This document shows positions 1 through 13,704 of a DNA stretch of 64,000 nucleotides, in pieces. The DNA is from an uncultured Bacteroidota bacterium. Its GTDB lineage: Bacteria > Bacteroidota > Bacteroidia > Bacteroidales > SZUA-534. The notes under the pieces were generated by a model that was not told the DNA's origin, did no database searches, and worked only from the letters and a program-made list of their open reading frames with translations. Numbering within the stretch: the stretch's first letter is position 1; each line of letters opens with the position of its first letter. The stretch is from positions 68,086-132,085 of the forward strand of contig CAMKOM010000003.1 of assembly GCA_946414435.1 (NCBI GenBank). The letters run 5' to 3'. The position numbers were made by a program, and so were the translations under genes.

Positions 1-100
1 CTATTTTCATTTCCTTGATATTTAATATTTTAAAATTGTTTGACTTTCTGTTTTATTGTTTAATTGGTGAATCGTTGAATCGTTCTGCCGTTTGTCTCTT

Positions 101-125
101 CGGACGCGGCACGCCACGTCCCTAC
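101..125 (-). repeat. GC hairpin repeat (family H1) GTAGGGACGTGGCGTGCCGCGTCCG, located 3' of the SusC-like gene
   Basis: The string is the exact reverse complement of 42143-42167. Related copies lie at 6395-6422 and 51297-51321. All sit at gene 3' ends. Confidence 0.8.
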
Positions 126-250
126 CAACACCCAAAACCTAACACCCAATACCATTCACCCCTTTTCATTGTTAATTATTAATTGTTAATTGTTAATTCC
201 GTGTCAATCAGTGTTATCTGTGTTATCCGTGCGAAAAATCCACGTTCAAA

Positions 251-3200
251 TCAAAGTGTCAGTTTCACCCCCGCAATCACGCTTCGCGAAGCAGGATAAA
301 CGCCTGAATCAGTGCCACTTGCCACTTCGGGGTCGTAGCCCTTGTAGCGTGTGGCGGTGAACAGGTTGCTGCCCGTGGCAAACACCCGCAACTGCGCGTT
401 GTATTCCTTTGGAAGCGGCACGTTGTAACCGATGGTCAGTTCGCGAAGTTTCAGATAACCAGCATTTTGCACATATCGGCTGTCGATGTGGGCGAACGGC
501 CGCGGACGGCTTGCCAGCGGCAGCGTGTTGCCGCCGTTTTCGGGTGTCCACGAGTCCTTGACGGTTGCCAGAACATTGTACGAATCGCCCGTCAGTTCGA
601 GCCTGCGGCCCAGCGCGTTATACACCTTGTTGCCCACGCTGAACCCGAACGATGCCGAAAAATCGATGCCTTTCCAGTTCACTTGCGTCGAGAACCCGCC
701 AGTCAGTTTCGGTTGGATGCTGCCCAGAATCACGCGGTCGTTGCCGTCGATGCGGCCGTTGCCGTCGATGTCTTCAAACTTCAGGTCGCCAGGCTGCGGC
801 GTCTGACCGTTGATGGTTGGCAATTTGGTCACGTCCTCGCCGCTCTGCACAATGCCGCCGAACTTCAGCCCGTAGAATGCGCCCAGCGGCTCGCCCTTGC
901 GCAGAATCTGCTGATTGTCAGAACCTTGAATCACATTATTGGTCGTTCCCATATCGGTGATTCGGTTTTGGTTCAATGCGGCGTTCGCCGATGCCGTCCA
1001 CGACAGCCGTTTGCGCTCAACCAGCGTTGTGTTCACGGCCAGTTCTACGCCTTTATTCACCACATTTCCAACATTTTGCAACTGTGTTGTCACACCCGTC
1101 GAGAAGCCCACAGGCACGTCGAGCAGCAGGTCGCTCGTTTTCTTGTAATAGATGTCGAAAACAAAGTCTAACTTATTGTTATACAGTCCCAAATCGAAAC
1201 CAGCATTGTAACTTGCCGTTGTTTCCCACTTCAAGTTGTCGTTGGCCGTGTTCTTCTTTGCGTAACTGCTCGAACCGCCGTAAGAGCCTGTGGCATACGA
1301 AGTTGTGAAAGCGTAATCGCTGATTTCCTGATTGCCCACAACGCCGCCCGTCAAGCGGATTTTCAGGTAGGTCACCTTGCTGAAAGTGCTCATAAACGCT
1401 TCTTTATCAACGTTCCACGACAGTCCGAGCGATGGGAAATAGCCCCAGCGGTGGCTGTGCGCAAAGCGGCTCGAATTGTCGGCGCGGAAAGTGGCCGTCA
1501 GGTTGTATCTGTCACTCAATGTGTAGTTTACGCGAGCGATGAGCGAATTCAGTTTCGCCTCGCTGATGCCCGTTTGCGGCGTGTAGATGCCCGAGCCGTC
1601 GCCCAAATTGTACTGTTTCAGCACCTCGTTTGTGAAGTGATTGGTGCGCACAACGCTGTTGGTCGATGTTGATGTCTGACGTGTGAAACCTGCCAGAAAA
1701 TCAATCGATTGGCTGCCGCCCAAATCCTTCTGATAGGTGGCTGTGTATTCCTGCTGCCAAACGTCGGTCTGACGGTTGCCCGTGCCGCCCACGCCTTCAG
1801 TGGCAAGGCCCAGCGACGTGTACGCACCCGAAAAAGTGTTCTGCGTCAAGTGCTCGCTGTTCAGCCCGACCGACGCTTTAAGTGTCAGATTGCCAACCGT
1901 ATAACTACTCCAAACATTCGAGAGCAGATAGTTGTTCAGGTTTTCGGCCACGCTTTCGCGAAGGTCGTAAACAGGGTTGGCCGCGTGGTCGCCGATGGCG
2001 AAATAGGCGTACTCGTATGGGTTGCTGAAATTGTAGTCGCCGTTGGCGTTATAAACCTCAACCACAGGCGGCATAAGCAGCGCATAGACGAAACTGTTGG
2101 TGATTCCTGCCGAGAATGGCGACGAGTTGAAAACCTGCTTTTCGGTGGTCGTCAGGCCGCGCTGACGGATGCGTCCGTAAGTTGTGTTCACGCCGAAGCG
2201 CACCTGCTTGCGCGGTTCCCATTCCACGTTGGTGTGGAAGTTATATCGTTGAAAACCAGAGTTCAAAACAATGCCGTCTTGGTCGGTGTAGTTGGCCGAG
2301 AAGGTGTAGCGGCTCTTGTCGCCCGCACCCTTCACGCTCAAGTCGTGCACCTGCTGAACGGCTGTCCGCAGAACGGCGTCCTGCCAGTCGGTGCCGTTGC
2401 CCAGAGCCGCAATCTGCTCGTCGGTGTAACCGCCCTTGTTGCTGAAATATTTCTTCTGAAAATCAGCCCATTCACGCGCGTTTAAAAGGTCGAGTTTGTG
2501 GCTCACGCGGCTCAAGCCGATGCTGTAGCCATAGACAATGCCGCCGAATTTCTCGCCCGCCTTGCCCTTTTTGGTCGTTATCAGAATCACGCCGTTCGCA
2601 CCGCGCGACCCGTAAATGGCTGTCGCAGAGACGTCTTTCAGCACCTCAACCGACTCAATGTCGTCGGGGTTCACCGTCGAGAGCGGATTCAGGCTGCCCT
2701 CAATCGAGCCCAGACCCGTGCCCGTGTTGGCCGCGTCCTTGAAATAGATGAAACCGTCAATCACGTAGAGCGGCTCGTTGCTCGCATTCACCGAGTTGCC
2801 GCCGCGGATGCGGATGTGGCTGTCGGCGCCAGGCTGTCCGCTGCTTGCCGTAACGGCCAGTCCCGCAACCTTTCCGCTCAACGCCTTGTCAACCGATGGC
2901 GCCGCCGTGCGGCTGATGGCTTCGGCCTTGACCGTGGCCACACTGCCCGTCAGTTGCGTGCGTTTCTGCGTGCCGTAGCCCACAACAACCACCTCGCTCA
3001 ACTTGTTCAGGTTCTCTGTCAGTTGAACCTCAATAGGTTCCGATGCCTCGTACACGTCGATTTCCTGCGAGCGGTAGCCCACAAACTGAATCAGCAGCGT
3101 GAGCGGAAGTTTCACTTTTGTTTTGAGCGTGAAGTTGCCGTCAAGGTCGGCCACCGTGCCCAATTCGTTGCCCGTTGTCGGCACAATGGTTGACCCGATG

Positions 3201-3313
3201 AGCGGGTCGCCCGTCCGAGCGTCGGTCACGCGGCCAGTTATGGTGGTGGTCTGCGCCGACGCCGAACTTGCTGACACAAAAGCAATTATAATTATGAGTA
3301 ATATCTTTTTCAT
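251..3313 (-). CDS. SusC/RagA-family TonB-linked outer membrane receptor
   Basis: Long ORF. I place the start at the ATG at 3311-3313, giving the signal peptide MKKILLIIIIAFVSASSASAQ. It has an N-terminal carboxypeptidase-D-like regulatory domain (TITGRVTDARTGDPLIGSTIV) and a plug motif (IESVEVLKDVSATAIYGSRGANGVILITTKKGK). The C-terminus is beta-barrel-like. Confidence 0.9.
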   Translation of the reverse strand: MKKILLIIIIAFVSASSASAQTTTITGRVTDARTGDPLIGSTIVPTTGNELGTVADLDGNFTLKTKVKLPLTLLIQFVGYRSQEIDVYEASEPIEVQLTENLNKLSEVVVVGYGTQKRTQLTGSVATVKAEAISRTAAPSVDKALSGKVAGLAVTASSGQPGADSHIRIRGGNSVNASNEPLYVIDGFIYFKDAANTGTGLGSIEGSLNPLSTVNPDDIESVEVLKDVSATAIYGSRGANGVILITTKKGKAGEKFGGIVYGYSIGLSRVSHKLDLLNAREWADFQKKYFSNKGGYTDEQIAALGNGTDWQDAVLRTAVQQVHDLSVKGAGDKSRYTFSANYTDQDGIVLNSGFQRYNFHTNVEWEPRKQVRFGVNTTYGRIRQRGLTTTEKQVFNSSPFSAGITNSFVYALLMPPVVEVYNANGDYNFSNPYEYAYFAIGDHAANPVYDLRESVAENLNNYLLSNVWSSYTVGNLTLKASVGLNSEHLTQNTFSGAYTSLGLATEGVGGTGNRQTDVWQQEYTATYQKDLGGSQSIDFLAGFTRQTSTSTNSVVRTNHFTNEVLKQYNLGDGSGIYTPQTGISEAKLNSLIARVNYTLSDRYNLTATFRADNSSRFAHSHRWGYFPSLGLSWNVDKEAFMSTFSKVTYLKIRLTGGVVGNQEISDYAFTTSYATGSYGGSSSYAKKNTANDNLKWETTASYNAGFDLGLYNNKLDFVFDIYYKKTSDLLLDVPVGFSTGVTTQLQNVGNVVNKGVELAVNTTLVERKRLSWTASANAALNQNRITDMGTTNNVIQGSDNQQILRKGEPLGAFYGLKFGGIVQSGEDVTKLPTINGQTPQPGDLKFEDIDGNGRIDGNDRVILGSIQPKLTGGFSTQVNWKGIDFSASFGFSVGNKVYNALGRRLELTGDSYNVLATVKDSWTPENGGNTLPLASRPRPFAHIDSRYVQNAGYLKLRELTIGYNVPLPKEYNAQLRVFATGSNLFTATRYKGYDPEVASGTDSGVYPASRSVIAGVKLTL

Positions 3314-3332
3314 AGATAAAATCCGAGTGAAA

Positions 3333-3358
3333 GGGTTGCGGACCGAGCGGCCCGCCCC
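3333..3358 (-). promoter_or_regulatory. Intercistronic GC-rich hairpin between the binding-protein gene and the SusC-like gene
   Basis: On the minus strand, GCGGGCCGCUCGGUCCGC (3355-3338) folds into a 7-bp stem (one G-U pair) with a 4-nt loop. It is flanked by GGG/CCC and has no U-tract. Confidence 0.45.
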
Positions 3359-3393
3359 TGTATTCAAAAACTTTTATGATGTTGGTAATCAGA

Positions 3394-4239
3394 CTATTCC
3401 TGTGCCAGGTCTTTCGATGGTAGTTTCAGCAGGCCGTATTGGTGCAGATACTGCGCGCCGTTGGTCAGGGTCCACTGCACAAAATTGTTGAGCAGCGCGT
3501 TCGAGTGGTCGTAGGCGAAAGCCGCATTGCCCACAGGAATCTCGCTGTAGCGTGCGTGCTCGAGCAGAGTCAGAATCTCGTCGAGTTGGCCGTCGGCCAG
3601 CACCTGCTCACCCTGTTTGTCAAGGTCGAGCGGCAGCAGAGCGATGTCTTTCTTCAGTTGGCGGCTCTCAAGGTCGAAAATATTTGACAATGTGCTGATT
3701 GTGACGCCCCACGGGTCGCGGCTCACGGCCACAGTCAGGTAAGAGTCGTCGCCCGAAATCTTCTTTCCGCGATAGTCGGCAGCCGCCTCGTCGAAATGCT
3801 CGGCATAGAACCGCGACACCGACTGTTGGCCAGTTGCGGTGTAGATGTGGATTTTCTGCTCGGTGGCTGTCGGCTCGTCGTCCTCAAACAGGTCCTCAAC
3901 AAAGAAGAGCGCCTTAATCCGTTTTGCGTTCAGGCGGCGACCAATCAGCCCCGCCGCTTCCGACTCTTTGGCCGAAACGGGCAACACCGCGTAGCGCGCA
4001 AAGTTCACACCGTCGGCGCTGTTGCTCACAACCGAAAGGCTGTTCTTCTCGCCAGCCTGCGCCTTGCCAGCCTTAAACACAAACTCAACGCCCGTGTTGG
4101 TTTTGCTGTATTCGTCGGCCCACTTCTCAACAAGCGGTTTGACCGAATTTGGCACGTGCACCGTAACTTGTTGGCTTTGAGCCAAAACCGATGCCTGAAA
4201 TCCTAAAACTATTGCTACTGTATATATTATCTTTTTCAT
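3394..4239 (-). CDS. Secreted periplasmic-binding-protein-fold protein (PstS / PBP type 2-like); ligand unknown
   Basis: ATG at 4237-4239 and signal peptide MKKIIYTVAIVLGFQASVLAQ. The N-terminus (VTVHVPNSVKPLVEKWADEYSKTNTGVEFVF) and C-terminus (FVQWTLTNGAQYLHQYGLLKLP) resemble PstS-type binding proteins from memory. It is the first gene of an operon with the SusC-like gene. Confidence 0.55.
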   Translation of the reverse strand: MKKIIYTVAIVLGFQASVLAQSQQVTVHVPNSVKPLVEKWADEYSKTNTGVEFVFKAGKAQAGEKNSLSVVSNSADGVNFARYAVLPVSAKESEAAGLIGRRLNAKRIKALFFVEDLFEDDEPTATEQKIHIYTATGQQSVSRFYAEHFDEAAADYRGKKISGDDSYLTVAVSRDPWGVTISTLSNIFDLESRQLKKDIALLPLDLDKQGEQVLADGQLDEILTLLEHARYSEIPVGNAAFAYDHSNALLNNFVQWTLTNGAQYLHQYGLLKLPSKDLAQE

Positions 4240-4332
4240 TGTATTTTCGTTTTTAAAGTATTGATATTGTATTTATTAAAGATTGTTGTGGCCTTCGTTT
4301 CTACAGCGGCGCCACGGTCCGCACTTCCAATC

Positions 4333-4407
4333 TCACTCGTTGCAACAGCAACACATTCGCATTCGTTTTGTCATTTCCATTGTTTTAATCCGTTTCATTT
4401 CTCTCAT
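4333..4407 (-). CDS. Candidate regulatory leader peptide MREMKRIKTMEMTKRMRMCCCCNE
   Basis: A 24-codon ORF begins about 10-20 nt after the predicted -7 box and ends 93 nt before the binding-protein ATG. It has four consecutive Cys codons (TGT TGC TGT TGC, 4353-4342) and six ATG codons. Coding status is unproven. Confidence 0.45.
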   Translation of the reverse strand: MREMKRIKTMEMTKRMRMCCCCNE

Positions 4408-4423
4408 CACATTTTTGACGATG

Positions 4424-4557
4424 CAAAAGTGCAATGTTTGGAAATATCCACCAAATAGTTTAATTATAACGGAAAATATAACTACAAAATCCACTTTCAT
4501 AGAATCTAATTCTTTGCACCCCCTCAAATAAGGCGGGTGCGTAGAATAATATTCTAC
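4424..4557 (-). promoter_or_regulatory. Promoter plus upstream operator module of the binding-protein/SusC operon
   Basis: On the minus strand there is a -7-like box TGCACTTTTG (4433-4424) and a 15-nt block GAAATATCCACCAAA (4441-4455) identical to 13745-13759. Two 13-bp palindromes are present: AGAATCTAATTCT (4501-4513) and AGAATAATATTCT (4543-4555, inside the 17-bp perfect palindrome 4541-4557). Their centres are 42 bp apart. Confidence 0.6.
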
Positions 4558-4660
4558 CAACACGGTAGATTGGTAGGTTGATAGAACGTTTTTTGTGGTG
4601 TTTTTATTGGGATTTTGTAGGGTTGCACAGCGCGGTTTGTAGGACTGACGCACAAATTAT

Positions 4661-4778
4661 GTAGGGCTGTCACACCGTGGCAGCCGCAAATTGCAAATGC
4701 AAACCGCAATTTATCGCAATCAACCATTCATTACGCGGCTGCCGTAATACGACAGCCCTATAGCCCGGATGATAATCA
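4661..4778. repeat. Composite repeat: arm A (GTAGGGCTGTCACACCGTGGCAGCCGC, 4661-4687) plus 77-nt arm B (4702-4778)
   Basis: Arm B is repeated directly at 6108-6184 with a few mismatches, and arm A at 6196-6221. Parts of A and B are mutually complementary (TAGGGCTGTC/GACAGCCCTA and GCAGCCGC/GCGGCTGC). Arm B overlaps the stop codon of the ATPase gene. Confidence 0.8.
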
Positions 4779-5948
4779 ATAGTTTAATCCAAAAGCCCAG
4801 AGCGGCACAACGTTGCCTGAACCATATTCAATGTCGTCTTTCACCACAAAACCATCGTTCACACTAGCAATCTGCCGCAGCCCCTTACTCTTGCCGCCGA
4901 CTTCGAATGTAATATTATCTATTTTGAAATCAGCAACTTCCGATGCTGTAACTTTATGATTGACTCTCATCTGATTAAAGAAAATCGTCTCTCGGACATT
5001 GCCGATGTATGTTGCATTGCCGCCCAAAACGTATGCTAAATTGGTGTTATCCAGATAAATTTTCTCAACCTTGCCCAACCCGATTATTCCGCCTGTCGCA
5101 TCGCGCAACTGACCAATCATTCCGGCGCGTTCCATATAGTAGAAATAGTTGCCAACGTCGTTACGGCTCACGTTTATCATTTTCGAAATCTTGTCCAAAA
5201 CCGGCTTGAACGGCGAGCTTTCGGCAACAATCGCAAGTAGTTTTTTCAGCTTCTGCCCTGTTGCAACGTTCATTTTGGCAAACTGCGGAATGTCCACTTC
5301 CATAGTAAAATTTATCACTTGATTCAGTTCAACATCGAACCGGCTGTCTGTGGCAAACGGATAGTAGCCGCGTTGCAGATAGTCGCGGAACAGTGGCAGC
5401 GGATGACGCTCGGCGGCTATCTCGGCGCGATTTGCAAGAATATCTTCCAACTCGTATTTCGGAACCGTAATCTTATGAAACATAGCAAGATACTCACGAA
5501 ACGACAGACCTTGCATATAATACATTGGCGCACGACGGCTTAAGTCGGCCTCACCTTTGTTGATGTCGAGTATCGACGAGCCTGTGAAAGCGATTTTCAA
5601 ATCGGGGTGAGTGTCGTAAATCTGCTTCAGTTCTCTCGACCAATTCGGATATTTATGTATCTCATCTATAAACAAATGCTGCCCGCCCTCGCGGCTGAAC
5701 TCATCGGCAGTATCGACTAACGAATGAGCGGCAAAATAGGTGTTGTCGGCCGAAATGTAGAGAATCCGCTCACGGTCGAAGTTTTGCTTGATATATTGCA
5801 GAAACAGAATTGTCTTGCCAACACCGCGCGGCCCAACCAAACCGAAAAGTCGGTCATTCCAATTGATTCGCTCGTACATATATCGCTGAAAATCAACAGG
5901 CACATTTGCCAACTGATTCCTCATATACGTGATTAGGTTCGTATCCAT
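4776..5948 (-). CDS. AAA+ ATPase with DUF4143-type C-terminal domain (COG1373-like)
   Basis: Start placed at the ATG at 5946-5948 (MDTNLITYMRNQL). Walker A is GPRGVGKT and Walker B-like is HLFIDEIH. The C-terminal region is typical of DUF4143 proteins, from memory. Confidence 0.8.
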   Translation of the reverse strand: MDTNLITYMRNQLANVPVDFQRYMYERINWNDRLFGLVGPRGVGKTILFLQYIKQNFDRERILYISADNTYFAAHSLVDTADEFSREGGQHLFIDEIHKYPNWSRELKQIYDTHPDLKIAFTGSSILDINKGEADLSRRAPMYYMQGLSFREYLAMFHKITVPKYELEDILANRAEIAAERHPLPLFRDYLQRGYYPFATDSRFDVELNQVINFTMEVDIPQFAKMNVATGQKLKKLLAIVAESSPFKPVLDKISKMINVSRNDVGNYFYYMERAGMIGQLRDATGGIIGLGKVEKIYLDNTNLAYVLGGNATYIGNVRETIFFNQMRVNHKVTASEVADFKIDNITFEVGGKSKGLRQIASVNDGFVVKDDIEYGSGNVVPLWAFGLNY

Positions 5949-5980
5949 AGCATTAGTTTTTTTGCAAATATAAGCGATAT

Positions 5981-6060
5981 TGCACTTCGTAGGTGCAGTT
6001 TTGTATAATAATTTGCACTTCGTGGGTGCAAATTTAAGAGAAGATTGCACCTTCCGGGTG
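5981..6060 (-). promoter_or_regulatory. Three phased hairpin or palindromic operator-like sites upstream of the ATPase gene
   Basis: The sites are TGCAC-TTCGTAG-GTGCA (5981-5997), TTTGCAC-TTCGTGG-GTGCAAA (6012-6033) and a degenerate CACC-TTCCG-GGTG (6048-6060). Their centres are about 32-33 bp apart. The first abuts the -7 box TATATTTG (minus strand, 5972-5965). Confidence 0.55.
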
Positions 6061-6107
6061 AAATTATTAGGTTTTACTTACGAGAACAACGCTTATTTTG
6101 GAACACC

Positions 6108-6221
6108 AACCGCAAATTAACGCAATCAACCATTCATTACGCGGCTGCCGTAATACGACAGCCCTACGGCCGCGAATGATAATTACAACCAATCCGTAGG
6201 GTGTCACACCGTGGCAGCCGC
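6108..6221. repeat. Second copy of repeat arm B (6108-6184) followed by arm A' (6196-6221)
   Basis: This is a direct repeat of 4702-4778 and 4661-4687, with the order of arms inverted relative to the left copy. Together the two copies bracket the ATPase gene. Confidence 0.8.
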
Positions 6222-6286
6222 ACACCGCCACAACGCGCCAAAATTGGGAACATTGCCATCAATTACCAACATTTCACACCGCCAAA

Positions 6287-6422
6287 CGCCGAAGGCGTGA
6301 CATACCACAGGCCGGGGTGTAAACCCCGGTTGGGCGCCAGCGCATAAAATGAACGCCGAAGGCGTGGCACGAAATCATCGGCGGCATTAAACACGTAGAG
6401 ACGCGATTAATCGCGTCTCTAC
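6287..6422. repeat. Cluster of small GC hairpins (REP/BIME-like)
   Basis: CGCCGAAGGCG occurs at 6287-6297 and 6354-6364. CCGGGGTGTAAACCCCGG is at 6312-6329. A perfect 28-nt palindrome, GTAGAGACGCGATTAATCGCGTCTCTAC, is at 6395-6422. Confidence 0.75.
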
Positions 6423-6482
6423 ACACATTATCAATATTTTGCCGCTTTATACAGATTCACAAACACCCAGAATAAGGCAATA

Positions 6483-7529
6483 TTATATCTCGTTCAATAT
6501 TATCTTAAGTTCCTGACTATTATTGTTTTCAATCAGTTGCTCTTTCCAAACTTCAATTTTATTATTTTGATTTACTGCGCAATTCCAACTTTCCGCAAGT
6601 TTGTCTGCATTAAACTGACATAGCATTTCTTTTATGTTGTTCAAGTTCATATACAATCGTAAAAATATTTGTGGAACGTTATATAGTCTTTGGTCATTGA
6701 TAATAATATCGGACTTACCACCTGCAGTGAATTGGTCTCGAACATTCGGACAAACCACACCTTTTTCCATTGCCAACCACATTGCTAAACGATTGAACTT
6801 GTCACCGTGATAACCAAACATTTCGGGGAACAAACAATATGCCTGTAATTTGAGATTTTCCTTTTCTTCTTCTTTTAGATAATTCCACAAACGTAGTATA
6901 ATGTTGCTTGCTTGTTTTTCTTGTTCATCATCATCATCCCCCATCCACCATAGGCGTTCCCCTTGTTGAAGTTGGCTTTTGTAAAACTTAACAACAGTTT
7001 TTATTGGGTTGTCTTGCTTCCTTAATTCATCGTACGGTACGTGTATTTTATCGAAGAACGTTTCACCTTGCCCAAGTTCCATATTTATCAAATACCGGGG
7101 TGAGTGGGTTACAACAACGTCAGACAAACATTCTTCATAAGGGCGACAACGGAATTGTATCGGGTCGCACATTTTACCGAACAACATATAAATTCGTTCT
7201 ACACTATCTACTCTTGTTCCCTCCGCCACGCTACTACCGGTGCTTCGCCAATGGTTTTCTTTTGTGGTCTTAACTTCTATTCCATAAAAATCGTTCGCAA
7301 CAATGTCAGGAAATCTTTGTCCGGAAATCAATTTAATTGAATTTTCAAACGGTGTGTGCAATGAGTTTTCTGTCAAAACATCCAAAACCTCATCCTCTAA
7401 TTTGTTTCCCAATAATTTGACATATTTTTCCGGTTTCTCTGTCGCCCGTCGGTGTAATGTCAACAGAGAATCGTTTAGCAAACTTTCAAAAGCTTGTTTT
7501 TGGGGTTCCGGATTAACTGAAACTATCAT
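6483..7529 (-). CDS. Putative Type II restriction endonuclease (PD-(D/E)XK)
   Basis: Its start overlaps the stop of the upstream C5-methyltransferase by 4 nt (ATGA at 7526-7529). The motif FPDIVANDFYGIEVKTTK fits PD...E-x-K. The gene is AT-rich relative to its neighbours by eye. Confidence 0.65.
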   Translation of the reverse strand: MIVSVNPEPQKQAFESLLNDSLLTLHRRATEKPEKYVKLLGNKLEDEVLDVLTENSLHTPFENSIKLISGQRFPDIVANDFYGIEVKTTKENHWRSTGSSVAEGTRVDSVERIYMLFGKMCDPIQFRCRPYEECLSDVVVTHSPRYLINMELGQGETFFDKIHVPYDELRKQDNPIKTVVKFYKSQLQQGERLWWMGDDDDEQEKQASNIILRLWNYLKEEEKENLKLQAYCLFPEMFGYHGDKFNRLAMWLAMEKGVVCPNVRDQFTAGGKSDIIINDQRLYNVPQIFLRLYMNLNNIKEMLCQFNADKLAESWNCAVNQNNKIEVWKEQLIENNNSQELKIILNEI

Positions 7530-8860
7530 TCTTCACCAAAATAAAGTGGCCAAACTTGTTGTAAGCGACGCGCTATGTTGTATGCCAAAACAGGCGGAAC
7601 GGCATTCCCAATAATTTTGTAGGCGCCAGAAGGGCTGACTGCGAATTTTTTCCCATTGTATGAATTAGAAAAGACGAAATCGTAATCGGGCGGAAATGTC
7701 TGTATCATAGCGCATTCGCGCGGTGTCAAACGGCGCTCTGATTTTCCTGCTTTCAATTCGTCGGTATATTTGCCTCCGTGTTCAGCGGATAATCTGCGGT
7801 ATTCAATGTTGCCGTGGTGTTCGGAACGAATTGTCGGACCAATGTCGTCAAGATTCACTTCATTTTGCCCTTGACAATGCGCCCCCATATACTTGGCTTG
7901 CGAATAGTATTTTTGAGAATCGTCATTTGAATCCGATGGCTCATCTAATGATTCAAAAACATTCCTAACAGTCTGAAATTGAGCCAAACGTTTGTCTTTT
8001 ATATGGTAGTTATGCGTTGGCTTTGGGTAAGGATTGTATTTTTCGGGTATACTTTCTTTTTCAAGATTTTTTAATGCAGTTGGGTTTAACAAATCCTTAC
8101 GGATTCCTATAAATATAACTCTCTCGCGAGACTGCGGCACACCATAATCGGCGGCGTGCAATACTTGTGGCGGCAAAACAATATAATCGTTCCCTGCTGC
8201 AGAAGAAAAATCCTTTTGTATAATATCTTTTACATTGCCTAAATTTGTAAGTCCTTTAACATTCTCTGCAACAAATATTTTCGGCCGAGTAATATCAATT
8301 ACTTCCTTCATCCAAAAATACAATTTGCCACGAGTCTCTTCTGTTGCAATCTCGCTAGTAATATAATTCCCGTTGTGGTCTTTGTGCGATTCAAAACCCC
8401 TTCTTTTGCCAGCCACACTAAAATCCTGACAAGGGAAACCGCCTGTTACCACATCAATGTTTTTAGGGAAAATATCATTGCAATCACGGTGCATTTTTAC
8501 CAAATCCACCACACTTTCTGTACGATATATACCGTCATCGTCATTTGATTTGGAAAAATAGTGTACCCAAGCAGCCCTTGCATCAGGCAGAATATCGTTT
8601 GCAAATACTGTTTGAAATATTGTAGGGGTCAGCCTTACAAAATCGTTGTCTAAATGTTCCGCAACAAAATCGGGACACATTTTTTCATTTACGCTGCCCT
8701 TATGAGTAATAAAGCCGCCTTCAAAGCCCAAATCCATTCCTCCGCATCCAGAGAAAAGGGATAATACTCGTAATTTTTTGCCTTCCCCTAGTTTAATATC
8801 CTTGCTGAAAGGATATGAAAATTGTGGCTCCTCAACATTGTTTTTTGATTCGTCTTCCAT
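7526..8860 (-). CDS. DNA (cytosine-5)-methyltransferase
   Basis: The canonical motifs are present: I LFSGCGGMDLGF, IV GGFPCQDFSVAGKR, VI ENVKGL, VIII QSRERVIFIG and X GNAVPP. Confidence 0.95.
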   Translation of the reverse strand: MEDESKNNVEEPQFSYPFSKDIKLGEGKKLRVLSLFSGCGGMDLGFEGGFITHKGSVNEKMCPDFVAEHLDNDFVRLTPTIFQTVFANDILPDARAAWVHYFSKSNDDDGIYRTESVVDLVKMHRDCNDIFPKNIDVVTGGFPCQDFSVAGKRRGFESHKDHNGNYITSEIATEETRGKLYFWMKEVIDITRPKIFVAENVKGLTNLGNVKDIIQKDFSSAAGNDYIVLPPQVLHAADYGVPQSRERVIFIGIRKDLLNPTALKNLEKESIPEKYNPYPKPTHNYHIKDKRLAQFQTVRNVFESLDEPSDSNDDSQKYYSQAKYMGAHCQGQNEVNLDDIGPTIRSEHHGNIEYRRLSAEHGGKYTDELKAGKSERRLTPRECAMIQTFPPDYDFVFSNSYNGKKFAVSPSGAYKIIGNAVPPVLAYNIARRLQQVWPLYFGEE

Positions 8861-8923
8861 TTTTGCGCTAATGCTTTTTGCGCTTGCTTATCTGTATTCA
8901 GGTACAAACGGACAATCCAAAAC

Positions 8924-8957
8924 GGCAAAAAAATGTGGACTTGAACTTTATCCACAT
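8924..8957 (-). terminator. Rho-independent-type terminator
   Basis: Minus strand has the stem ATGTGGA/TCCACAT (8957-8951 / 8939-8933) followed by a T7 run. Confidence 0.6.
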
Positions 8958-9122
8958 CCTAGGCCGTCAGAATTGCCCGTTATCACAGATAAGTCAAGCC
9001 CACGCAATAGCGCAGGCATCTTTTTTGACTTATTCGTGTGATAACATTTCTAAAATTTCTGACGTTTTAGGATATGCCGAATTATCAAAGCAAACGCTTG
9101 ATTAATAATATGTTATTTAAAA

Positions 9123-9160
9123 ATTACTTTCTGTTTCTTACAGTTCGTTTAATGTTTTAT
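9123..9160. repeat. About 40-nt direct repeat, copy 1 (ATTACTTTCTGTTTCTTACAGTTCGTTTAATGTTTTAT)
   Basis: It matches 10193-10233 (ATTTACTTTCTGTTTCTTATACTATTCGTTTAATTATTTAT) with a few mismatches and indels. The two copies bracket the DUF1016 gene. Confidence 0.75.
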
Positions 9161-10137
9161 ATCTCTTTTAATTTGTTTTCAAATAGTTTTTTATCAGGCA
9201 GTTGCAATTGATATTGCGCCACCAGTGTTGGCGACAGGCTTCGTGATAAAGCGTACTCCACAACTTCGTCGTCTTTGTCGTGGCACAAAAGTATGCCAAT
9301 ACTTGGATTCTCGTGCGGTTTCTTTACGTCGCGGTCCAATGCTTCAAGATAAAAATCCAATTGGCCAAGGTATTCAGGCTTGAATTTGCCAACTTTCAAT
9401 TCAAATGCCACCATTGCGCCAATGCCTCGGTGAAAGAACAGCAAATCGACGTAAAAATCCTGGCAGCCTACTTGCAACCGAAATTCTTCCGCCATAAATA
9501 TGAAATCGTTACCAAGTTCAAGTATGAACTGCTTCATATTCGCAACCAATGCTTTTTGCAATTCAGATTCGGAATGCGATTCGGGCAGCCCCAAAAACTC
9601 AAGCACGTATGTGTCTTTAATATCGGGCACGTTCATTTCTCTCACCGCTGGTGAGAGTTTTGCCGATGTCAGGCTTCTCTCATATTGAGCCGCATCAATC
9701 TGCCGTTCCAATTCTCTCTTTGTCAAATGATTACGACGGCACATATCAATGTAAAACAACCTTTCCTCGTCGGTTTTACATCTCGACATAATAGTGATAT
9801 TATGTGTCCACGACAATTCTCTCACCGCTGGTGAGAGTTTTTCGTCGGAACTATACAACTCATAGAATTGCTTCATACGCCAAAGGTTCTTGTCGCTAAA
9901 TCCTTTGGCATCAGTAATTTCAGTTGCAATGTATGCCGCCAATTGTGTTACAACTCCTTTTCCCCAACTGGCTTCTTTAACTTTTATGCTTATCACCTGC
10001 CCAATCTGCCAATATAAATCAACAAGCGTTCGATTGGCCACTTCAAATACCGTCTGCCGCGCGGCTCGAATTCGTTGCGCCAGAAATTCAAACACATCTT
10101 TTGTCGTTGCATCGATATTTGATATTTCAGTGTTCAT
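9157..10137 (-). CDS. PDDEXK nuclease, YhcG / DUF1016 family
   Basis: The N-terminal region (LVDLYWQIGQ...GKGVVTQLAAYI...FSDKNLWRMKQFYELY) and the C-terminal motifs (DLLFFHRGIGAMVAFELKVGKFKPEYLGQLDFYL) match this family from memory. Confidence 0.85.
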   Translation of the reverse strand: MNTEISNIDATTKDVFEFLAQRIRAARQTVFEVANRTLVDLYWQIGQVISIKVKEASWGKGVVTQLAAYIATEITDAKGFSDKNLWRMKQFYELYSSDEKLSPAVRELSWTHNITIMSRCKTDEERLFYIDMCRRNHLTKRELERQIDAAQYERSLTSAKLSPAVREMNVPDIKDTYVLEFLGLPESHSESELQKALVANMKQFILELGNDFIFMAEEFRLQVGCQDFYVDLLFFHRGIGAMVAFELKVGKFKPEYLGQLDFYLEALDRDVKKPHENPSIGILLCHDKDDEVVEYALSRSLSPTLVAQYQLQLPDKKLFENKLKEI

Positions 10138-10192
10138 AGTTGGACTTTTATTCCTGCAACTGCTCTAATTTCTTGAGTAGTTGATTATTAGG

Positions 10193-10233
10193 ATTTACTT
10201 TCTGTTTCTTATACTATTCGTTTAATTATTTAT
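10193..10233. repeat. About 40-nt direct repeat, copy 2
   Basis: See 9123-9160. The preceding 10183-10200 (GATTATTAGGATTTACTT) also resembles 6063-6079 (ATTATTAGGTTTTACTT) upstream of the ATPase gene. Confidence 0.7.
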
Positions 10234-10326
10234 GCTTCTTCAACTATTTATGCTAATTGCGAAACTGTCAGTTTCGTAATTGATTCCTAATTTTTCAATA
10301 TTTTACTAAAACCCTGCAAGTTATAT

Positions 10327-11175
10327 CTAAATCAATTTCGTTATCATTTCATCGGCTTGCAACTGCATCTTGCAGAAAGCAAACCATCGCTTTCCCAAAT
10401 CCTTGATTGAAGCGCCAATGTGGTACACATCGCTATCGATAATCAGGAACCTGTCGTGCGACTTGGTAAAGATACACAAATCTATTGGTTCGTACTGCTT
10501 ATTGTGCTGCGCCAGCGCCACATTTAATGACGGCGAAGTCTGTTGCGTGTAGATTTTGGCCGTTACATTTTTGGCGCGCTCGGCCAACCGCAGCAAGACT
10601 GTTTCATCAACATAGTTATCTATCAGCACAATACGTTTCCTTGCCGAGCGAATCAGATTGTTGACAAAAGCGAACGGCTCAAGCATCTGTCCATCGTAAA
10701 AAATTCCCTCGACAGGCGGCAGCGAAGTGCGCACAAAGAAGTCGATTTTGTTAGAATGCTCTTCAAGTATTTTTTGTTGTGTTTCAAGTTGGCCCTCAAT
10801 GTTGGCCAGTCGGTTGTTAAATGCGTATCCTCTTAAAAGATAATCTTTTAATATACCTGTTGCCCATATTCTAAATAGTGTGCCTCTCTGACTTTTAACA
10901 CGATAGCCAACGGAAATAATTACATCGAGATTGTAATATTGGGTTCGGTATTTTTTCCCGTCTGCGGCAGTTGTCAAGTAATCCTTGACAACTGAATTTT
11001 TATCTAACTCTTTCTCTCTGAATATGTTATTAATATGAAGGCTGATATTTTGTTTTGTGGTTTCAAAAAGCACAGTCATTTGTTGCTGTGTCAGCCACAC
11101 AGTTTCCTCACTCAACCGCACTTCAAGCTTTACGGCATCGTCGGGTTGGTATAATATGATTTCGTTCCCTGTCAT
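10327..11175 (-). CDS. RhuM-family protein with a conserved C-terminal module
   Basis: The N-terminus carries YNLDVIISVGYRVKSQRGTLFRIWATGILKDYL, typical of Virulence_RhuM. The C-terminus carries IVLIDNYVDETVL...HDRFLIIDSDVYHIGASIKDLGKRWFAF. Confidence 0.8.
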   Translation of the reverse strand: MTGNEIILYQPDDAVKLEVRLSEETVWLTQQQMTVLFETTKQNISLHINNIFREKELDKNSVVKDYLTTAADGKKYRTQYYNLDVIISVGYRVKSQRGTLFRIWATGILKDYLLRGYAFNNRLANIEGQLETQQKILEEHSNKIDFFVRTSLPPVEGIFYDGQMLEPFAFVNNLIRSARKRIVLIDNYVDETVLLRLAERAKNVTAKIYTQQTSPSLNVALAQHNKQYEPIDLCIFTKSHDRFLIIDSDVYHIGASIKDLGKRWFAFCKMQLQADEMITKLI

Positions 11176-11335
11176 AAAATGCTAAATCTTCGCCTTAACG
11201 CGAACTACCAAGTTTTTATCGGTAGTTGATATTTAGTTTCGCCCCACACAAAAGGCTACCAAATATAGAAACAAAATGAAAACAAAAAAGGCCCGCAACT
11301 TTCGCCACGAGCCCGTCAAAACACAGAAATTAACA

Positions 11336-12520
11336 TCATTTCAAGGCTAAAGCAATTCTTTCCAGAGCCTCACGCAAAACAACGCGCGGCGTGGCCACGT
11401 TGAGCCGCATAAATCCTTCGCCGCCGGGGCCGAACATTTCGCCGTCGTTCAGGGCAAGGCGGGCGCGGTTTATAAATAGGTCGTTCAGTTGGGTGTGGTT
11501 GAGTCCGAGCTGTCGGCAGTCGAGCCAGACAAGAAACGATGCCTGCGGACGCAACGGCCTGATTCCCGGCAGGTTATAGGCGCAGAAGTCTTCAACCAGG
11601 CAGATATTATCTTCAACATAATCAAGCATTTGGCGGCGCCACTCTTCGCCTTGCGCGAAGGCCGCAATGGTGGCAATGGGCGCAAAAAGCGTCGGTTCGT
11701 CGAACTCGTTGGCCGACATCCACTTGAACAGCGGGCGGCGCAGAGCCGGGTTGGGCACAATGGCGTATGAGCTCACAATTCCGGCAATGTTGAACGTTTT
11801 CGACGGCGCGCCAAGCGTGATGCTGCAACGCGCGGCAGCCTCGGACACGGTGGCAAACGGAATGTGGCGGTGGCCGAAAAGAGCCAGGTCGCAGTGAATC
11901 TCGTCGCTGATGACGATGACGTTGTTGCGGTCGCAGATGTCGGCCACGCGCTCAAGCGTTGCGCGGTCCCAGACAATGCCGCCGGGGTTGTGCGGATTGC
12001 TTATCACCAGCATCCGGTTGCGCGGGTCAGCAGCCTGACGCTCAAGCAGTTCAAGGTCCATACGGTAGCCGGTGAGCGCGCCGTTGGCGGTTACTTCGCA
12101 AAGCTGATTGTTCACCACTTCGCGGCCGTTGCCAAGCGTGGTCAGGCGGAACGGATGATAGACCGGCGGCTGAATGATGACGCGCTCGTCGGGTTTCAGC
12201 AAGGCATTGATTGCCATACCGATACCTTTCACAACACCCGGCACGTAAGTCAGCCATTCGCGCTCAACCTGCCACTGATGGTGGTCCAGAATCCAGCGCT
12301 GAATCGACGTCCAAAGCTCGTCGGGCGTGGCGGTGTAGCCGTAAATGGGGTGCTCAACGCGTCGCCGAAGAGCGTCAACAACAAAAGGCGGCGTGGCAAA
12401 ATCCATATCGGCCACCCAGAGCGGAAGCAAATCGGCTCGACCGTAACGCTGCTGCAAAACGCTGTGTTTAAGGTCGTTGCTGCCCGCGCGGTCAATCACT
12501 TCATCAAAATTATATTTCAT
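11336..12520 (-). CDS. patB: MalY/PatB-type cystathionine beta-lyase (class I/II aminotransferase fold)
   Basis: The N-terminus is MKYNFDEVIDRAGSNDLKH...LPLWVADMDF and the PLP-lysine region is APSKTFNIAG. There is a 4-nt overlap with the upstream metY-like gene. Confidence 0.85.
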   Translation of the reverse strand: MKYNFDEVIDRAGSNDLKHSVLQQRYGRADLLPLWVADMDFATPPFVVDALRRRVEHPIYGYTATPDELWTSIQRWILDHHQWQVEREWLTYVPGVVKGIGMAINALLKPDERVIIQPPVYHPFRLTTLGNGREVVNNQLCEVTANGALTGYRMDLELLERQAADPRNRMLVISNPHNPGGIVWDRATLERVADICDRNNVIVISDEIHCDLALFGHRHIPFATVSEAAARCSITLGAPSKTFNIAGIVSSYAIVPNPALRRPLFKWMSANEFDEPTLFAPIATIAAFAQGEEWRRQMLDYVEDNICLVEDFCAYNLPGIRPLRPQASFLVWLDCRQLGLNHTQLNDLFINRARLALNDGEMFGPGGEGFMRLNVATPRVVLREALERIALALK

Positions 12521-13704
12521 CCCAAAGCCTGTTTAATATCTTTAAAAATGTCGTTAACATCTTCAAGACCAACGCTTAAGCGGATGGTTGTCTGCTTGAC
12601 GTCCACTTCGCTCAGCTGCCTGTTGGTGAAGTTTCCAAAGATAGTTGATGCCGGGTGAATTGCCAGCGTCTTGTTGTCGAACAGGTTGGTGGCGCGCAGA
12701 ATGAGCTGCAGGCGGTTCAGGAAGCTGAAACAGGCGTCGCGGTCGGCAAGGTCGATGGTGAGCATTGCGCCGCCCGTCGGGCCAAACTGCCGTTGCGCCC
12801 GCTCGTAGTACGGATTGTCGGGCAAACCGATATAATTTACTGATTTTATGCTTTTTAACTTTTGCAGTTTCTTTGCAAGTTTAAGCGCGTTGGCCGACTG
12901 CACACGGTAGCGCGCGTCCAGCGTCTCAAGGCCGAGAGTCTGCATATAGGCGGCGTGCGGAGTCATATACGAGCCCAGATTGAACAGAATCTCGTACGCA
13001 ATCCGCTCGTGAAAGCCGGGAACCGTGCCATAATCGATGACCAGTCCGCCGAGCGATGTGGCGCCACCCGAGACATATTTGGTGCTCGAAACCAACTCAA
13101 TATCAACGCCGAAGTCGGCCAAGTGCGTCTCGGTGAACGGAATGGCCGTGGAATCGACAATCAGCGGAACATTACACGCGTGAGCCACTTGCGCAATCTG
13201 CTGCAAGTCAGCCACTTCGAGCTGCGGATTCGACACTGCTTCAAGAAAAACGCAGCAGGTGTTATCGTCGATTTTAGAGCGCAGCTGTTCAACATCGTTC
13301 ATATTACAGACGCGCGCTTCAACGCCAAATCGCGCCAGCGTGCGGGTTATCAGGTTGAAAGTGTTGCCGAAAAGGTGTTTCGACGCCACAATATTCTTCC
13401 CATTCCCCGCAAGGGCGATGAACGTTGACGCGATGGCCGCCATACCCGAATTGAAAGCCGTCACGTGGGTCGCCCCGGTGATTGCCTTCACCTTCGACTC
13501 GAAGTAGGTAACTGTCGGATTTTCAACGCGCGAGTAGTCAGGTGCTTCAATGCGGCCGCAGAACGCGTCGGACATTGTCTTGGCGTCGTCAAACTGATAG
13601 GCCACCGTGTTATAAACCGGCATACTTATTGCCCCGTAGGCGTCGCGCCGCGCAAACTGCGTATGTATCGCTTTTGTCTGTCTTTTAATAGTTTTCTGTG
13701 ACAT
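12517..13704 (-). CDS. metY: O-acetylhomoserine/O-acetylserine sulfhydrylase-type PLP enzyme (MetY-like)
   Basis: Start placed at the ATG at 13702-13704 (MSQKTIKRQTKAIHTQF). The PLP region is SSTKYVSGGATSLGG, with Cys/Met-metabolism PLP family features. Confidence 0.85.
   Translation of the reverse strand: MSQKTIKRQTKAIHTQFARRDAYGAISMPVYNTVAYQFDDAKTMSDAFCGRIEAPDYSRVENPTVTYFESKVKAITGATHVTAFNSGMAAIASTFIALAGNGKNIVASKHLFGNTFNLITRTLARFGVEARVCNMNDVEQLRSKIDDNTCCVFLEAVSNPQLEVADLQQIAQVAHACNVPLIVDSTAIPFTETHLADFGVDIELVSSTKYVSGGATSLGGLVIDYGTVPGFHERIAYEILFNLGSYMTPHAAYMQTLGLETLDARYRVQSANALKLAKKLQKLKSIKSVNYIGLPDNPYYERAQRQFGPTGGAMLTIDLADRDACFSFLNRLQLILRATNLFDNKTLAIHPASTIFGNFTNRQLSEVDVKQTTIRLSVGLEDVNDIFKDIKQALG

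Follow-up and report, generated by a model that had tools for sequence, protein, structure and literature searches.

Which nutrient is served by an outer-membrane import operon whose first gene encodes a secreted protein of the phosphate-binding protein (PstS) fold and whose second gene encodes a SusC-type receptor? This question is raised by the minus strand of a 64,000-nucleotide (nt) stretch, hereafter the window, of contig CAMKOM010000003.1 from an uncultured Bacteroidales bacterium. A preliminary description of this locus had proposed an uptake route for a sulfur compound. On comparison with related loci, we consider it probable that the operon is a sulfur-limitation-induced uptake system for a sulfur compound, and likewise probable that it is a SusCD-type import unit kept in rumen and termite-gut Bacteroidales, in effect a 'sulfur utilisation locus'. 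The earlier proposal was strengthened by a conserved, gene-specific leader, by synteny with sulfur genes and by proteins poor in Met and Cys, while two of its parts, a layout without SusD and an analogy to oxyanion-binding proteins, proved to be an edge artefact and unsupported, respectively.

A genome scan yielded 80 related loci from Salinivirgaceae, Prevotella, other Bacteroidaceae, Dysgonomonas, Tannerella, Parabacteroides and termite-gut metagenome-assembled genomes (MAGs), and the open reading frames (ORFs) of these loci were called and clustered. Cultured carriers are among them, namely Prevotella sp. tf2-5 (L030), Dysgonomonas gadei ATCC BAA-286 (L079) and D. termitidis (L066). The nearest genome to the window was a sheep-rumen Salinivirgaceae MAG (L014), with 97% identity across 13.8 kb. 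On the minus strand of the window, the order was a promoter-like box, a Cys/Met leader upstream ORF (uORF), the gene for a protein of periplasmic binding protein (PBP) fold, a hairpin, SusC and, beyond the window, SusD. The secreted protein gene named in the preliminary description was recovered at 3394-4239 (-) from the ORF list, relatives and a fold model; it encodes 281 amino acids (aa) with a signal of the signal-peptidase-I type at the N-terminus (MKKIIYTVAIVLGFQASVLA followed by QSQQ), without a lipobox Cys, and a mature protein of ~260 aa. The large ORF that follows at 251-3367 (-) is, by its domain profiles, unambiguously a SusC/RagA TonB-dependent outer-membrane transporter: it matched TIGR04056 over the full length (813.5 bits versus a cut-off of 368.25) and the TIGR04057 signature (64.6 versus 46.2), and showed the domain order PF13715 (CarboxypepD_reg-like), PF07715 (Plug) and PF00593 (barrel), as in the SusC/RagA family. 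Its start is probably the ATG at 3313 (MKKILLIII...), which gives a protein of 1,020 aa at 251-3313 (-).

The preliminary description had noted that no SusD gene adjoins SusC. The window stops within the SusC-SusD spacer, of which positions 1-250 (-) are the first ~250 nt of ~360 nt, as judged from locus L011, which is collinear with the window down to position 3 at 97% identity. In L011, a 546-aa SusD lipoprotein (MNKRIFLAVIASALLAGFSSC...) starts at 14351, ~110 nt past the equivalent of window position 1, and the apparent lack of SusD is therefore an artefact of the window edge. SusD also follows SusC in L001, L002 and L004, and loci with a 98%-identical PBP-like protein carry a 546-aa SusD. 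The ATG at 10-8, previously taken as the next possible gene start, was rejected as the SusD start: the L011 sequence that matches the window's final ATGAAAATAG is spacer, and the equivalent ATG opens a mere 19-codon ORF there. Across the related loci, SusC followed the PBP-like gene in 67 of the 73 loci long enough to show it, and SusD was present in 55 of 66.

Upstream of the PBP-like gene, sequence and comparison identified a leader uORF of 24 codons at 4333-4407 (-), encoding MREMKRIKTMEMTKRMRMCCCCNE up to its stop codon, with 7 Met and 4 consecutive Cys. The preliminary description had tied such a Cys/Met leader to the operon, and the comparison bears this out: a Cys-run uORF, with at least three Cys codons and at most 300 nt upstream, preceded 39 of 75 PBP-like genes and 2 of 900 other genes of the same loci (Fisher p ~3e-46). 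The lineages concerned were Salinivirgaceae, Prevotella, Dysgonomonas and termite-gut bacteria, among which the PBP-like proteins are just 35-55% identical. The uORF peptides elsewhere (MKTMSMRQMQMCCCCCSS... in Prevotella; ...GMRMSMCCC in Dysgonomonas) differ in length and sequence except for the Cys/Met codon runs. When the entire 64-kb window was scanned, no second genuine Cys-run uORF was detected, the leader uORF being the sole one. Just upstream of it, at 4424-4431 (-), lies the box CACTTTTG, which resembles TAnnTTTG, the Bacteroidetes -7 element; on this likeness to the Bacteroides consensus, the box is a putative promoter. The block GCACTTTTGCATCG was invariant in Salinivirgaceae relatives, even in one with a PBP-like protein of 54% identity, and other lineages carried an equivalent ..TTTGCA.. 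box ahead of the leader or gene.

In three loci of Tannerella/Dysgonomonadaceae (L071, L084 and L086), the Cys/Met uORF was followed by a terminator hairpin of 12-14 bp with a U-run (z = -3.4 to -6.2). The L084 terminator, with its 9-nt loop, was missed by the simple terminator scan and recovered by folding. A segment in or near the uORF (GGACAGC) repeats the 3' arm of the terminator and is a candidate antiterminator. The uORF, terminator and repeated arm in these three loci have, as read from their sequences, the layout of a classical attenuator. Polycysteine uORFs of mycobacteria are experimentally established Cys-responsive attenuators (bioRxiv 10.1101/834739), and our literature search found no earlier description of a Cys leader in Bacteroidetes. 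We propose that the uORF of the window may act as a ribosome-stalling sensor of Cys/Met supply.

Further features were noted in the upstream regions. Folding predicted a small hairpin (GUGGC...GCCAC) at 4288-4315 (-), past the stop codon of the uORF and ahead of the PBP-like gene, with a compensatory change in L028 and L013 (AUGGC...GCCAU). In Prevotella (L005, 9875-10050, and the equivalents in L017-L040), the uORF crosses the start of the PBP-like gene out of frame and ends ~50 nt inside it, an arrangement more suggestive of interference or coupling in translation than of terminated transcription. In L064, a Symbiothrix MAG (~4350), the PBP-like gene comes first and a uORF encoding MSMRMRMCCC comes after it, 88 nt upstream of the gene for an M14 peptidase, which in turn lies ahead of SusC; the position of the leader within the cluster can thus vary. 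Operator-like palindromes were observed just upstream of the promoter box (window ~4542-4576 (-)) and in the upstream regions of L084, L071, L086, L077, L016, L050, L043 and L005, in the form TACC-N8-GGTA in many lineages and GTAGAAT-N(1-3)-ATTCTAC in the window and L052-type loci. These palindromes may be sites for a sulfur-metabolism transcription factor, alongside or instead of the uORF. The Rfam search detected no riboswitch or known leader in the region, the whole window or seven related loci, the only local match being a spurious sub-threshold microRNA model.

Next to the leader, the gene neighbourhood points to sulfur. At least one sulfur-metabolism gene was found within 10 kb in 52 of the 80 loci; the preliminary description would have given way had orthologous operons lacked such a link. 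Genes recurrent upstream, given here with the number of loci that have each within 10 kb, were those for a MetY-like pyridoxal phosphate (PLP) enzyme (32 loci), PatB C-S lyase (29), ThiF (26), Prok-JAB (19), a DsrE-like protein (16), SufS-family cysteine desulfurase (15), TusA (13) and ThiS (12). In the window itself, a PatB-family C-S lyase gene lies at 11345-12520 (-), its cluster representative scoring 456 bits against TIGR04350 (cut-off 340), and upstream of patB a gene for a MetY-like PLP enzyme of Cys/Met metabolism (O-acetylhomoserine sulfhydrylase-like; PF01053, 295 bits) lies at 12556-13689 (-), for which the best NCBIfam matches were O-acetylhomoserine/O-acetylserine sulfhydrylases, all under the cut-off. 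Downstream, the recurrent genes encoded two kinds of carrier, namely an SDF symporter and an NhaC-type carrier accompanied by a protein of the SDH_alpha family, as well as a periplasmic DUF4369-thioredoxin-like lipoprotein, peptidases of the M14 and M20 families, one to three URO-D/MtaA-like proteins, and a YtkA-like lipoprotein with a second TonB-dependent receptor. The SDH_alpha (serine dehydratase alpha-chain family) protein, which gave no NCBIfam match, is in our reading cysteine-desulfidase-like. No ATP-binding cassette (ABC) importer, Pst/Pho gene or cluster of carbohydrate-active enzymes (CAZymes) was recurrent in the 80 neighbourhoods, and the claim that the binding protein lacks an ABC permease or ATPase partner, first made for the window, extends to its relatives. 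An ABC ATPase of any kind was present in just 9 of the 80 loci, mostly of fused types of 590-640 aa located several genes off or on the opposite strand. Sulfate-reduction genes (cysDN/H/IJ) and cysTWA were likewise not recurrent near the operon, no match to glycoside-hydrolase, lyase or esterase families was obtained for the recurrent neighbour clusters that were scanned, and a LuxR/GerE regulator was nearby in only 16 loci.

A further line of evidence, which depends neither on synteny nor on the leader, comes from the composition of the proteins. The mature PBP-fold protein of the window contains neither Met nor Cys, and its SusC, after the signal peptide, contains 3 Met and no Cys in 995 residues; these two are the most sulfur-poor of the 47 ORFs in the window (median 3.5% Met+Cys). 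Across the loci, the median Met+Cys content of the mature proteins was 0% for PBP-like, 0.3% for adjacent SusC and 0.4% for adjacent SusD proteins, compared with 3.7% for background ORFs (p 1e-33 to 1e-43), and starch-type SusC and SusD of the same Prevotella genome contained 1.7% and 4.0%, respectively. The depletion was also observed in 107 distant representatives of the PBP-like family, and URO-D-like, M14, thioredoxin-like, SufS and JAB proteins were similarly depleted. Transport proteins nearly without Met and Cys can be made during sulfur shortage, and this near-total absence in three large proteins makes a strikingly clear example of elemental sparing. A low content of Met and Cys is a known trait of proteins that sulfur starvation induces (PMC2940859, citing Baudouin-Cornu 2001 and Mazel & Marliere 1989).

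We then considered what kind of protein leads the operon. No exact copy of the 281-aa protein was present in the searched collection, and a 98%-identical relative was used instead. Its family comprised 1,710 relatives in a 90%-clustered database, every one without a Pfam domain. In a set of 1.84 billion proteins, the family amounted to 381 clusters at 50% identity. The sole Pfam match of the 281-aa protein was PBP_like_2 (PF12849), at 16.8 bits versus a threshold of 27, and this model gave a sub-threshold match in just one of 34 family members. The NCBIfam search of the 281-aa protein returned no match, and a sequence search of the PDB with the family profile returned noise only. Judged by sequence, the PBP-like proteins thus form a separate new family that does not merge with the PstS superfamily. 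An AlphaFold2 model of the 281-aa protein, built on a 34-sequence alignment, had a pLDDT of 79 and a pTM of 0.78. The Foldseek matches of this model in the PDB were led by PstS phosphate-binding proteins, followed by ModA, with a probability of 1.0 at 10-14% identity; the top entries, 4pqj, 4omb, 4gd5 and 1twy, gave E values of 1e-9 to 1e-11 and TM scores of 0.5-0.62, and effector domains of LysR were also among the matches. The model firmly supports a predicted type-II (cluster D) two-lobe PBP fold, and the PstS fold assigned in the preliminary description therefore holds at the level of the modelled fold, though not at that of sequence, where PBP_like_2 stayed below threshold.

The analogy with sulfate- and thiosulfate-binding proteins, also drawn in the preliminary description, fared less well. 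No match for the PBP-like protein was obtained with SBP_bac_11 or the NCBIfam sulfate-binding models, and no cysTWA-like clusters were found in the neighbourhoods. The phosphate ligands of E. coli PstS (Thr10, Ser38, Asp56, Arg135 and Ser139-Gly140-Thr141) were compared by hhalign; the alignment was very weak (probability 2.8%), with the C-lobe unaligned, and within it Thr10 fell on a variable position, Ser38 on a gap and Asp56 on a variable position. The polar and aromatic residues conserved among the 107 distant representatives were W40, Y133, D165, D175, D189, R193, D220, E227, F253 and W256, while H131, D164, D165 and H266 were conserved in the clade of the window, His131 and His266 not being conserved family-wide. 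The acidic and aromatic family-wide set is suggestive, not decisive, in arguing against a sulfate, thiosulfate or phosphate pocket. Membership in the PstS/Sbp families was not recovered by sequence.

The stable intercistronic hairpin of the preliminary description was found again by folding at 3332-3358 (-), as a GC-rich structure (GGGGCGGGCC-GCUC-GGUCCGC..CCC) in the 96-nt spacer that separates the PBP-like gene from SusC. For this spacer, a folding energy of -25 kcal/mol was obtained (z = -2.3). A folding free energy of -15 or lower was reached at the PBP-SusC junction in 77% of 62 distinct loci, compared with 2% of shuffles and 12% of SusC-SusD junctions, and the hairpin is kept in position and stability, with stem sequences that vary by lineage. 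Repetitive extragenic palindromic (REP) hairpins between malE and malF give a higher yield of the upstream product. By this analogy, we infer that the hairpin may raise the yield of the binding protein above that of SusCD.

Taken together, these observations suggest the following mechanism, in which we infer that sulfur limitation induces the operon, that the PBP-fold protein is periplasmic and acts as a shuttle, what the substrate is and what the hairpin does. A shortage of charged Cys-tRNA or Met-tRNA would make ribosomes stall in the uORF, attenuation would be lifted and the operon would be expressed. The TonB-energised SusCD would move a reduced organic sulfur compound over the outer membrane, the most likely cargo being a peptide or disulfide that contains Cys, or else a thiol or an S-substituted amino acid, and the PBP-fold protein would capture the compound in the periplasm. 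The hairpin would probably make the PBP-fold protein exceed SusCD, either by stabilising or by partly terminating the upstream mRNA segment. From the PBP-fold protein, the compound would be handed to periplasmic enzymes and to secondary inner-membrane carriers of the SDF and NhaC types, not to an ABC transporter, and PatB C-S lyase, MetY-like sulfhydrylase and a SufS/TusA/DsrE/ThiS-ThiF-JAB relay would convert its sulfur to cysteine and methionine. The ligand is most likely a reduced organic sulfur compound, and any particular substrate is held with far less confidence than sulfur uptake as such. Cys-containing peptides or disulfides best match the presence of the thioredoxin-like, M14 and M20 genes.

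A more far-reaching reading is offered tentatively, as we hold it to be somewhat doubtful: a SusCD obligately served by a periplasmic PBP-fold shuttle that feeds non-ABC secondary carriers, under Cys/Met-leader control, with sulfur-free proteins and a community-derived organosulfur cargo, would constitute an unrecognised class of element-scavenging system. Candidate cargoes of such a class are glutathione-like Cys peptides or disulfides, plant S-methylated amino acids and thiol cofactors such as coenzyme M of methanogens, the last being suggested solely by the periplasmic MtaA-like proteins with a Zn-thiolate motif in the Prevotella versions of the operon.

Three sets of neighbours were noted in particular lineages. 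The URO-D/MtaA-like proteins occurred in 19 Prevotella-type loci, in up to three tandem copies (representative L018 15786-16832), some with lipoboxes. All 23 distinct proteins carried a signal peptide and essentially two Cys only, one in an H-x-C motif (23/23) and a second Cys (17/23), which we take to resemble the Zn-thiolate site of thiol alkyltransferases of the MtaA/MetE type; by this analogy, the substrate in the lineages concerned may be a thiol or a thioether. In 24 of the 80 loci, a YtkA-like lipoprotein of surface type, with a DCCS motif and a Met-rich stretch, and a 653-aa TonB-dependent receptor were encoded between SusD and the SDF carrier (representatives L052 15744-16703 and L051 16510-18471). 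The best NCBIfam match of this receptor was the TonB-dependent copper receptor, a weak one at 87.8 bits versus a cut-off of 472. The ThiS-like carrier of L053 (7234-7446) ends in ...GGGAL rather than GG and is adjoined by a Prok-JAB gene, presumably as befits a carrier that needs proteolytic maturation in thiocarboxylate-dependent Met/Cys synthesis.

Several points weigh against a sulfur-controlled uptake operon. The leader of the window folds no better than its shuffles (z = +0.97), and the terminator scan and folding revealed no convincing terminator/antiterminator pair and no U-tract in the leader of its lineage. About half of the loci have no run of at least three Cys codons upstream; some of these carry shorter Cys/Met uORFs, and some carry none and lie directly after patB. 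The YtkA-like lipoprotein and the copper-receptor-like receptor are not depleted in Met and Cys, and their presence is not accounted for by the explanation. The closest solved SusC and SusD structures are components of glycan utilisomes, followed by RagA, which does not settle the substrate. Finally, all of the evidence is computational and mostly from MAGs, and the loci share ancestry, so that the counts are not independent events.

Other explanations of the locus were weighed against the same evidence. In the simplest version of the earlier proposal, the PBP-fold protein is an Sbp/CysP-like oxyanion binder for the import of inorganic sulfate or thiosulfate. The nearest folds are indeed those of the oxyanion binders PstS and ModA, and sulfur-linked regulation and context would suit any sulfur source, but the protein matches none of the PstS, Sbp and ModA families in sequence, the polar residues kept throughout its family are for the most part acidic or aromatic (D165, D175, D189, D220, E227, W40, Y133 and W256), and an acidic pocket would repel an oxyanion. 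Small anions pass the outer membrane via porins, and a SusCD pair is normally not needed for them. Given also that neither cysDN/H/IJ nor cysTWA recurs nearby, and that the neighbouring enzymes (C-S lyase, sulfhydrylase and desulfurase) work on reduced sulfur, we regard this explanation as very unlikely. The positions of the PstS ligands, unconserved in the weak hhalign alignment, count against it and equally against scavenging of phosphate or organophosphate by a PstS-like binder and a PusCD-like SusCD under Pho control. According to the preliminary description, phosphate-coordinating residues and Pho-type regulation would have refuted its sulfur hypothesis; no phosphatase, phosphodiesterase, pstCAB, phoU or phoBR gene recurred in the 80 neighbourhoods. 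A leader rich in Cys and Met codons speaks against phosphate as well, and Met/Cys-poor proteins are not predicted by phosphate limitation. We thus consider phosphate scavenging highly improbable, even with phosphate-binding proteins as the best structural matches and with a phosphate-depletion-induced PusCD known from Flavobacterium (PMC8115612). An ordinary glycan polysaccharide utilization locus (PUL) that stands beside sulfur genes by chance, to which the glycan utilisome components among the solved structures would point, is just as improbable: clusters of glycoside hydrolases, lyases or esterases are not recurrent in the operons, and three features, namely the Cys-run leader, a composition poor in sulfur and a synteny that spans families, point to sulfur.

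Cys and Met are ligands of soft metals, and the locus could on that account serve uptake of a metal or metal-thiolate (for example copper, or molybdenum/tungsten species), with the small Cys/Met ORF as a metal-binding peptide or sensor. Many operons include the YtkA-like lipoprotein with its DCCS and Met-rich motif and the receptor with the weak copper-receptor match (87.8 versus 472 bits), and ModA is among the structural neighbours. However, this pair is found in only 24 of the 80 loci, the dominant neighbours are genes of Cys/Met biosynthesis and sulfur relay, and the PBP-like, SusC and SusD proteins are almost without Met and Cys, which would be odd for handlers of soft metals. The uORF peptides vary outside their Cys/Met codon runs, and in some loci classical terminators come after them, which would be expected of a sensor that is translated and not of a product. 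Metal uptake therefore appears improbable to us. It is less remote, though still unlikely, that the system scavenges sulfur and that the PBP-fold protein is a periplasmic enzyme, sensor or chaperone instead of a shuttle. Neither an ABC transporter nor a membrane partner of the tripartite ATP-independent periplasmic (TRAP) or tripartite tricarboxylate transporter (TTT) type is encoded, and SDF and NhaC carriers are not known to depend on binding proteins. PBP folds have been reused in enzymes and regulators, as with the LysR effector domains found by Foldseek, and H131, D164, D165 and H266 of the window's clade could form a catalytic or metal site. Set against this are the lack of family-wide conservation of His131 and His266, the lack of a match to any enzyme family, and the place of the PBP-like gene, which is always first and separated by the hairpin from SusC, as fits a product needed in excess. 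Uptake of a sulfur compound with the PBP-fold protein as a periplasmic shuttle thus remains the reading that we prefer.

SusCD pairs are the defining nutrient importers of gut Bacteroidota and have been studied almost wholly for glycans, peptides and organic phosphorus being the exceptions. In common with the SusCD/RagAB importers of glycan PULs and the RagAB peptide importer, the present operon has a SusC barrel with CarboxypepD_reg and plug domains and, in relatives, SusD downstream, followed in several loci by genes for surface lipoproteins. It differs from them in that a secreted PBP-fold gene comes first, CAZymes are missing, the operon contains no hybrid two-component, SusR or extracytoplasmic function (ECF)-anti-sigma regulator and is apparently under Cys/Met uORF control, and its proteins contain hardly any Met or Cys. 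In concept, it comes closest to PusCD of Flavobacterium (Lidbury et al., PMC8115612), a SusCD for a limiting element rather than for carbon, located beside enzymes for the organic forms of that element. Here, the element is apparently sulfur, the neighbours are Cys/Met and sulfur-relay genes and not phosphatases, and a PBP-fold component and leader-peptide control are added. With the PstS, ModA and Sbp/CysP binding proteins of ABC transporters, the PBP-like protein shares the two-lobe fold (TM 0.5-0.6), secretion, a mature length of ~260 aa and the first place in the operon; in contrast, it is 10-14% identical to them, does not reach the Pfam threshold and has no PDB sequence match, its oxyanion ligand positions are unconserved in the weak alignment, and it is partnered by SusCD without ABC genes.

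The leader resembles the 'Cys ribulon' of mycobacteria (Canestrari et al., bioRxiv 10.1101/834739), in which a short ORF with consecutive Cys codons precedes sulfur/cysteine operons and ribosome pausing at the Cys codons is proposed. The mycobacterial ORFs are leaderless, act by sequestration of the ribosome-binding site and belong to another phylum, whereas the present uORF is not leaderless, is also rich in Met and would control an outer-membrane importer; intrinsic terminators in some lineages point to transcription attenuation, and the Prevotella uORF overlaps the PBP-like gene. With regard to the neighbouring enzymes, thiocarboxylate-dependent Met/Cys synthesis, which uses a ThiS-like carrier with a C-terminal extension, JAB, a ThiF-like E1 and MetY, has been described in Wolinella succinogenes and Mycobacterium. 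Genes for ThiS, Prok-JAB, ThiF, SufS, TusA, DsrE and MetY-like proteins cluster in the same way beside the operon in many loci, the difference being that the module is here linked to an outer-membrane uptake operon, a link undescribed in the searched literature. Our literature search also yielded no prior description of a sulfur-linked SusCD system. The parts of the operon, namely SusCD, a type-II PBP fold and leader control, are of known kinds, and what is undescribed in that literature is their combination as a binding-protein-led SusCD operon without an ABC transporter, tied to Cys/Met metabolism, with a Cys/Met leader and sulfur-free proteins.

The sulfur supply of rumen and gut Bacteroidales is poorly understood, and many of them cannot reduce sulfate. 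If the proposed function is correct, the conserved sulfur-scavenging operon would offer a path by which members of rumen and termite-gut communities could cross-feed on sulfur. It would also provide a new family of binding proteins, a periplasmic binding protein paired with a TonB-dependent SusCD in place of an ABC transporter, and Cys/Met leader-peptide control in a phylum where this is barely documented. Should the shuttle-served class exist, it would contain the first binding-protein-assisted SusCD and the first Cys leader attenuator reported in the phylum.

The SusC-SusD spacer showed variations of its own. Its length was 244-363 nt in the Salinivirgaceae clade alone and 9-81 nt in other lineages. 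The repeats attributed earlier to positions 1-250 were confirmed, being direct and short, and an inverted repeat of 10 nt (66-75/151-160) was detected in addition. Approximately 100 nt of the spacer (window 60-165), bounded by inverted repeats and holding a GC hairpin (GGGACGTGGCGTGCCGCGTCC), are missing from L001 and L009. This segment was considered as a miniature inverted-repeat transposable element and rejected, as it is single-copy in the window and its sole other occurrences, in L008 and L011, are at the orthologous position; by these sequence comparisons, it is a single-copy, lineage-specific indel.

Upstream of the operon, an insertion of ~6.7 kb (window 4582-11283) parts metY-patB from the leader and is missing from the otherwise collinear L008, L009 and L011; in relatives without it, patB lies directly upstream of the leader, and the insertion in the window is secondary. 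It contains genes for an AAA_14 ATPase (4776-6050), a C5 cytosine DNA methylase (7526-8860) and a RhuM-family protein (10327-11175), together with a 348-aa ORF (6483-7529) without a Pfam match, and is probably a mobile restriction-modification or defence islet. A repeat of ~76 nt, observed by BLAST of L014, flanks the AAA_14 gene at 4702-4776 and 6108-6183, and a sub-threshold 'mir-449' match of Rfam at 4664-4758 that overlaps it probably reflects the hairpin of this repeat. An Acido-Lenti-1 RNA match was obtained at 6285-6330 (-), with 40.9 bits versus a gathering score of 37. At the far end of the window, a lipoprotein-like ORF without a Pfam match (62796-64000 (+)) runs past the window end; it is the third most sulfur-poor ORF of the window (0.8% Met+Cys), with an upstream region that carries no Cys-run uORF.

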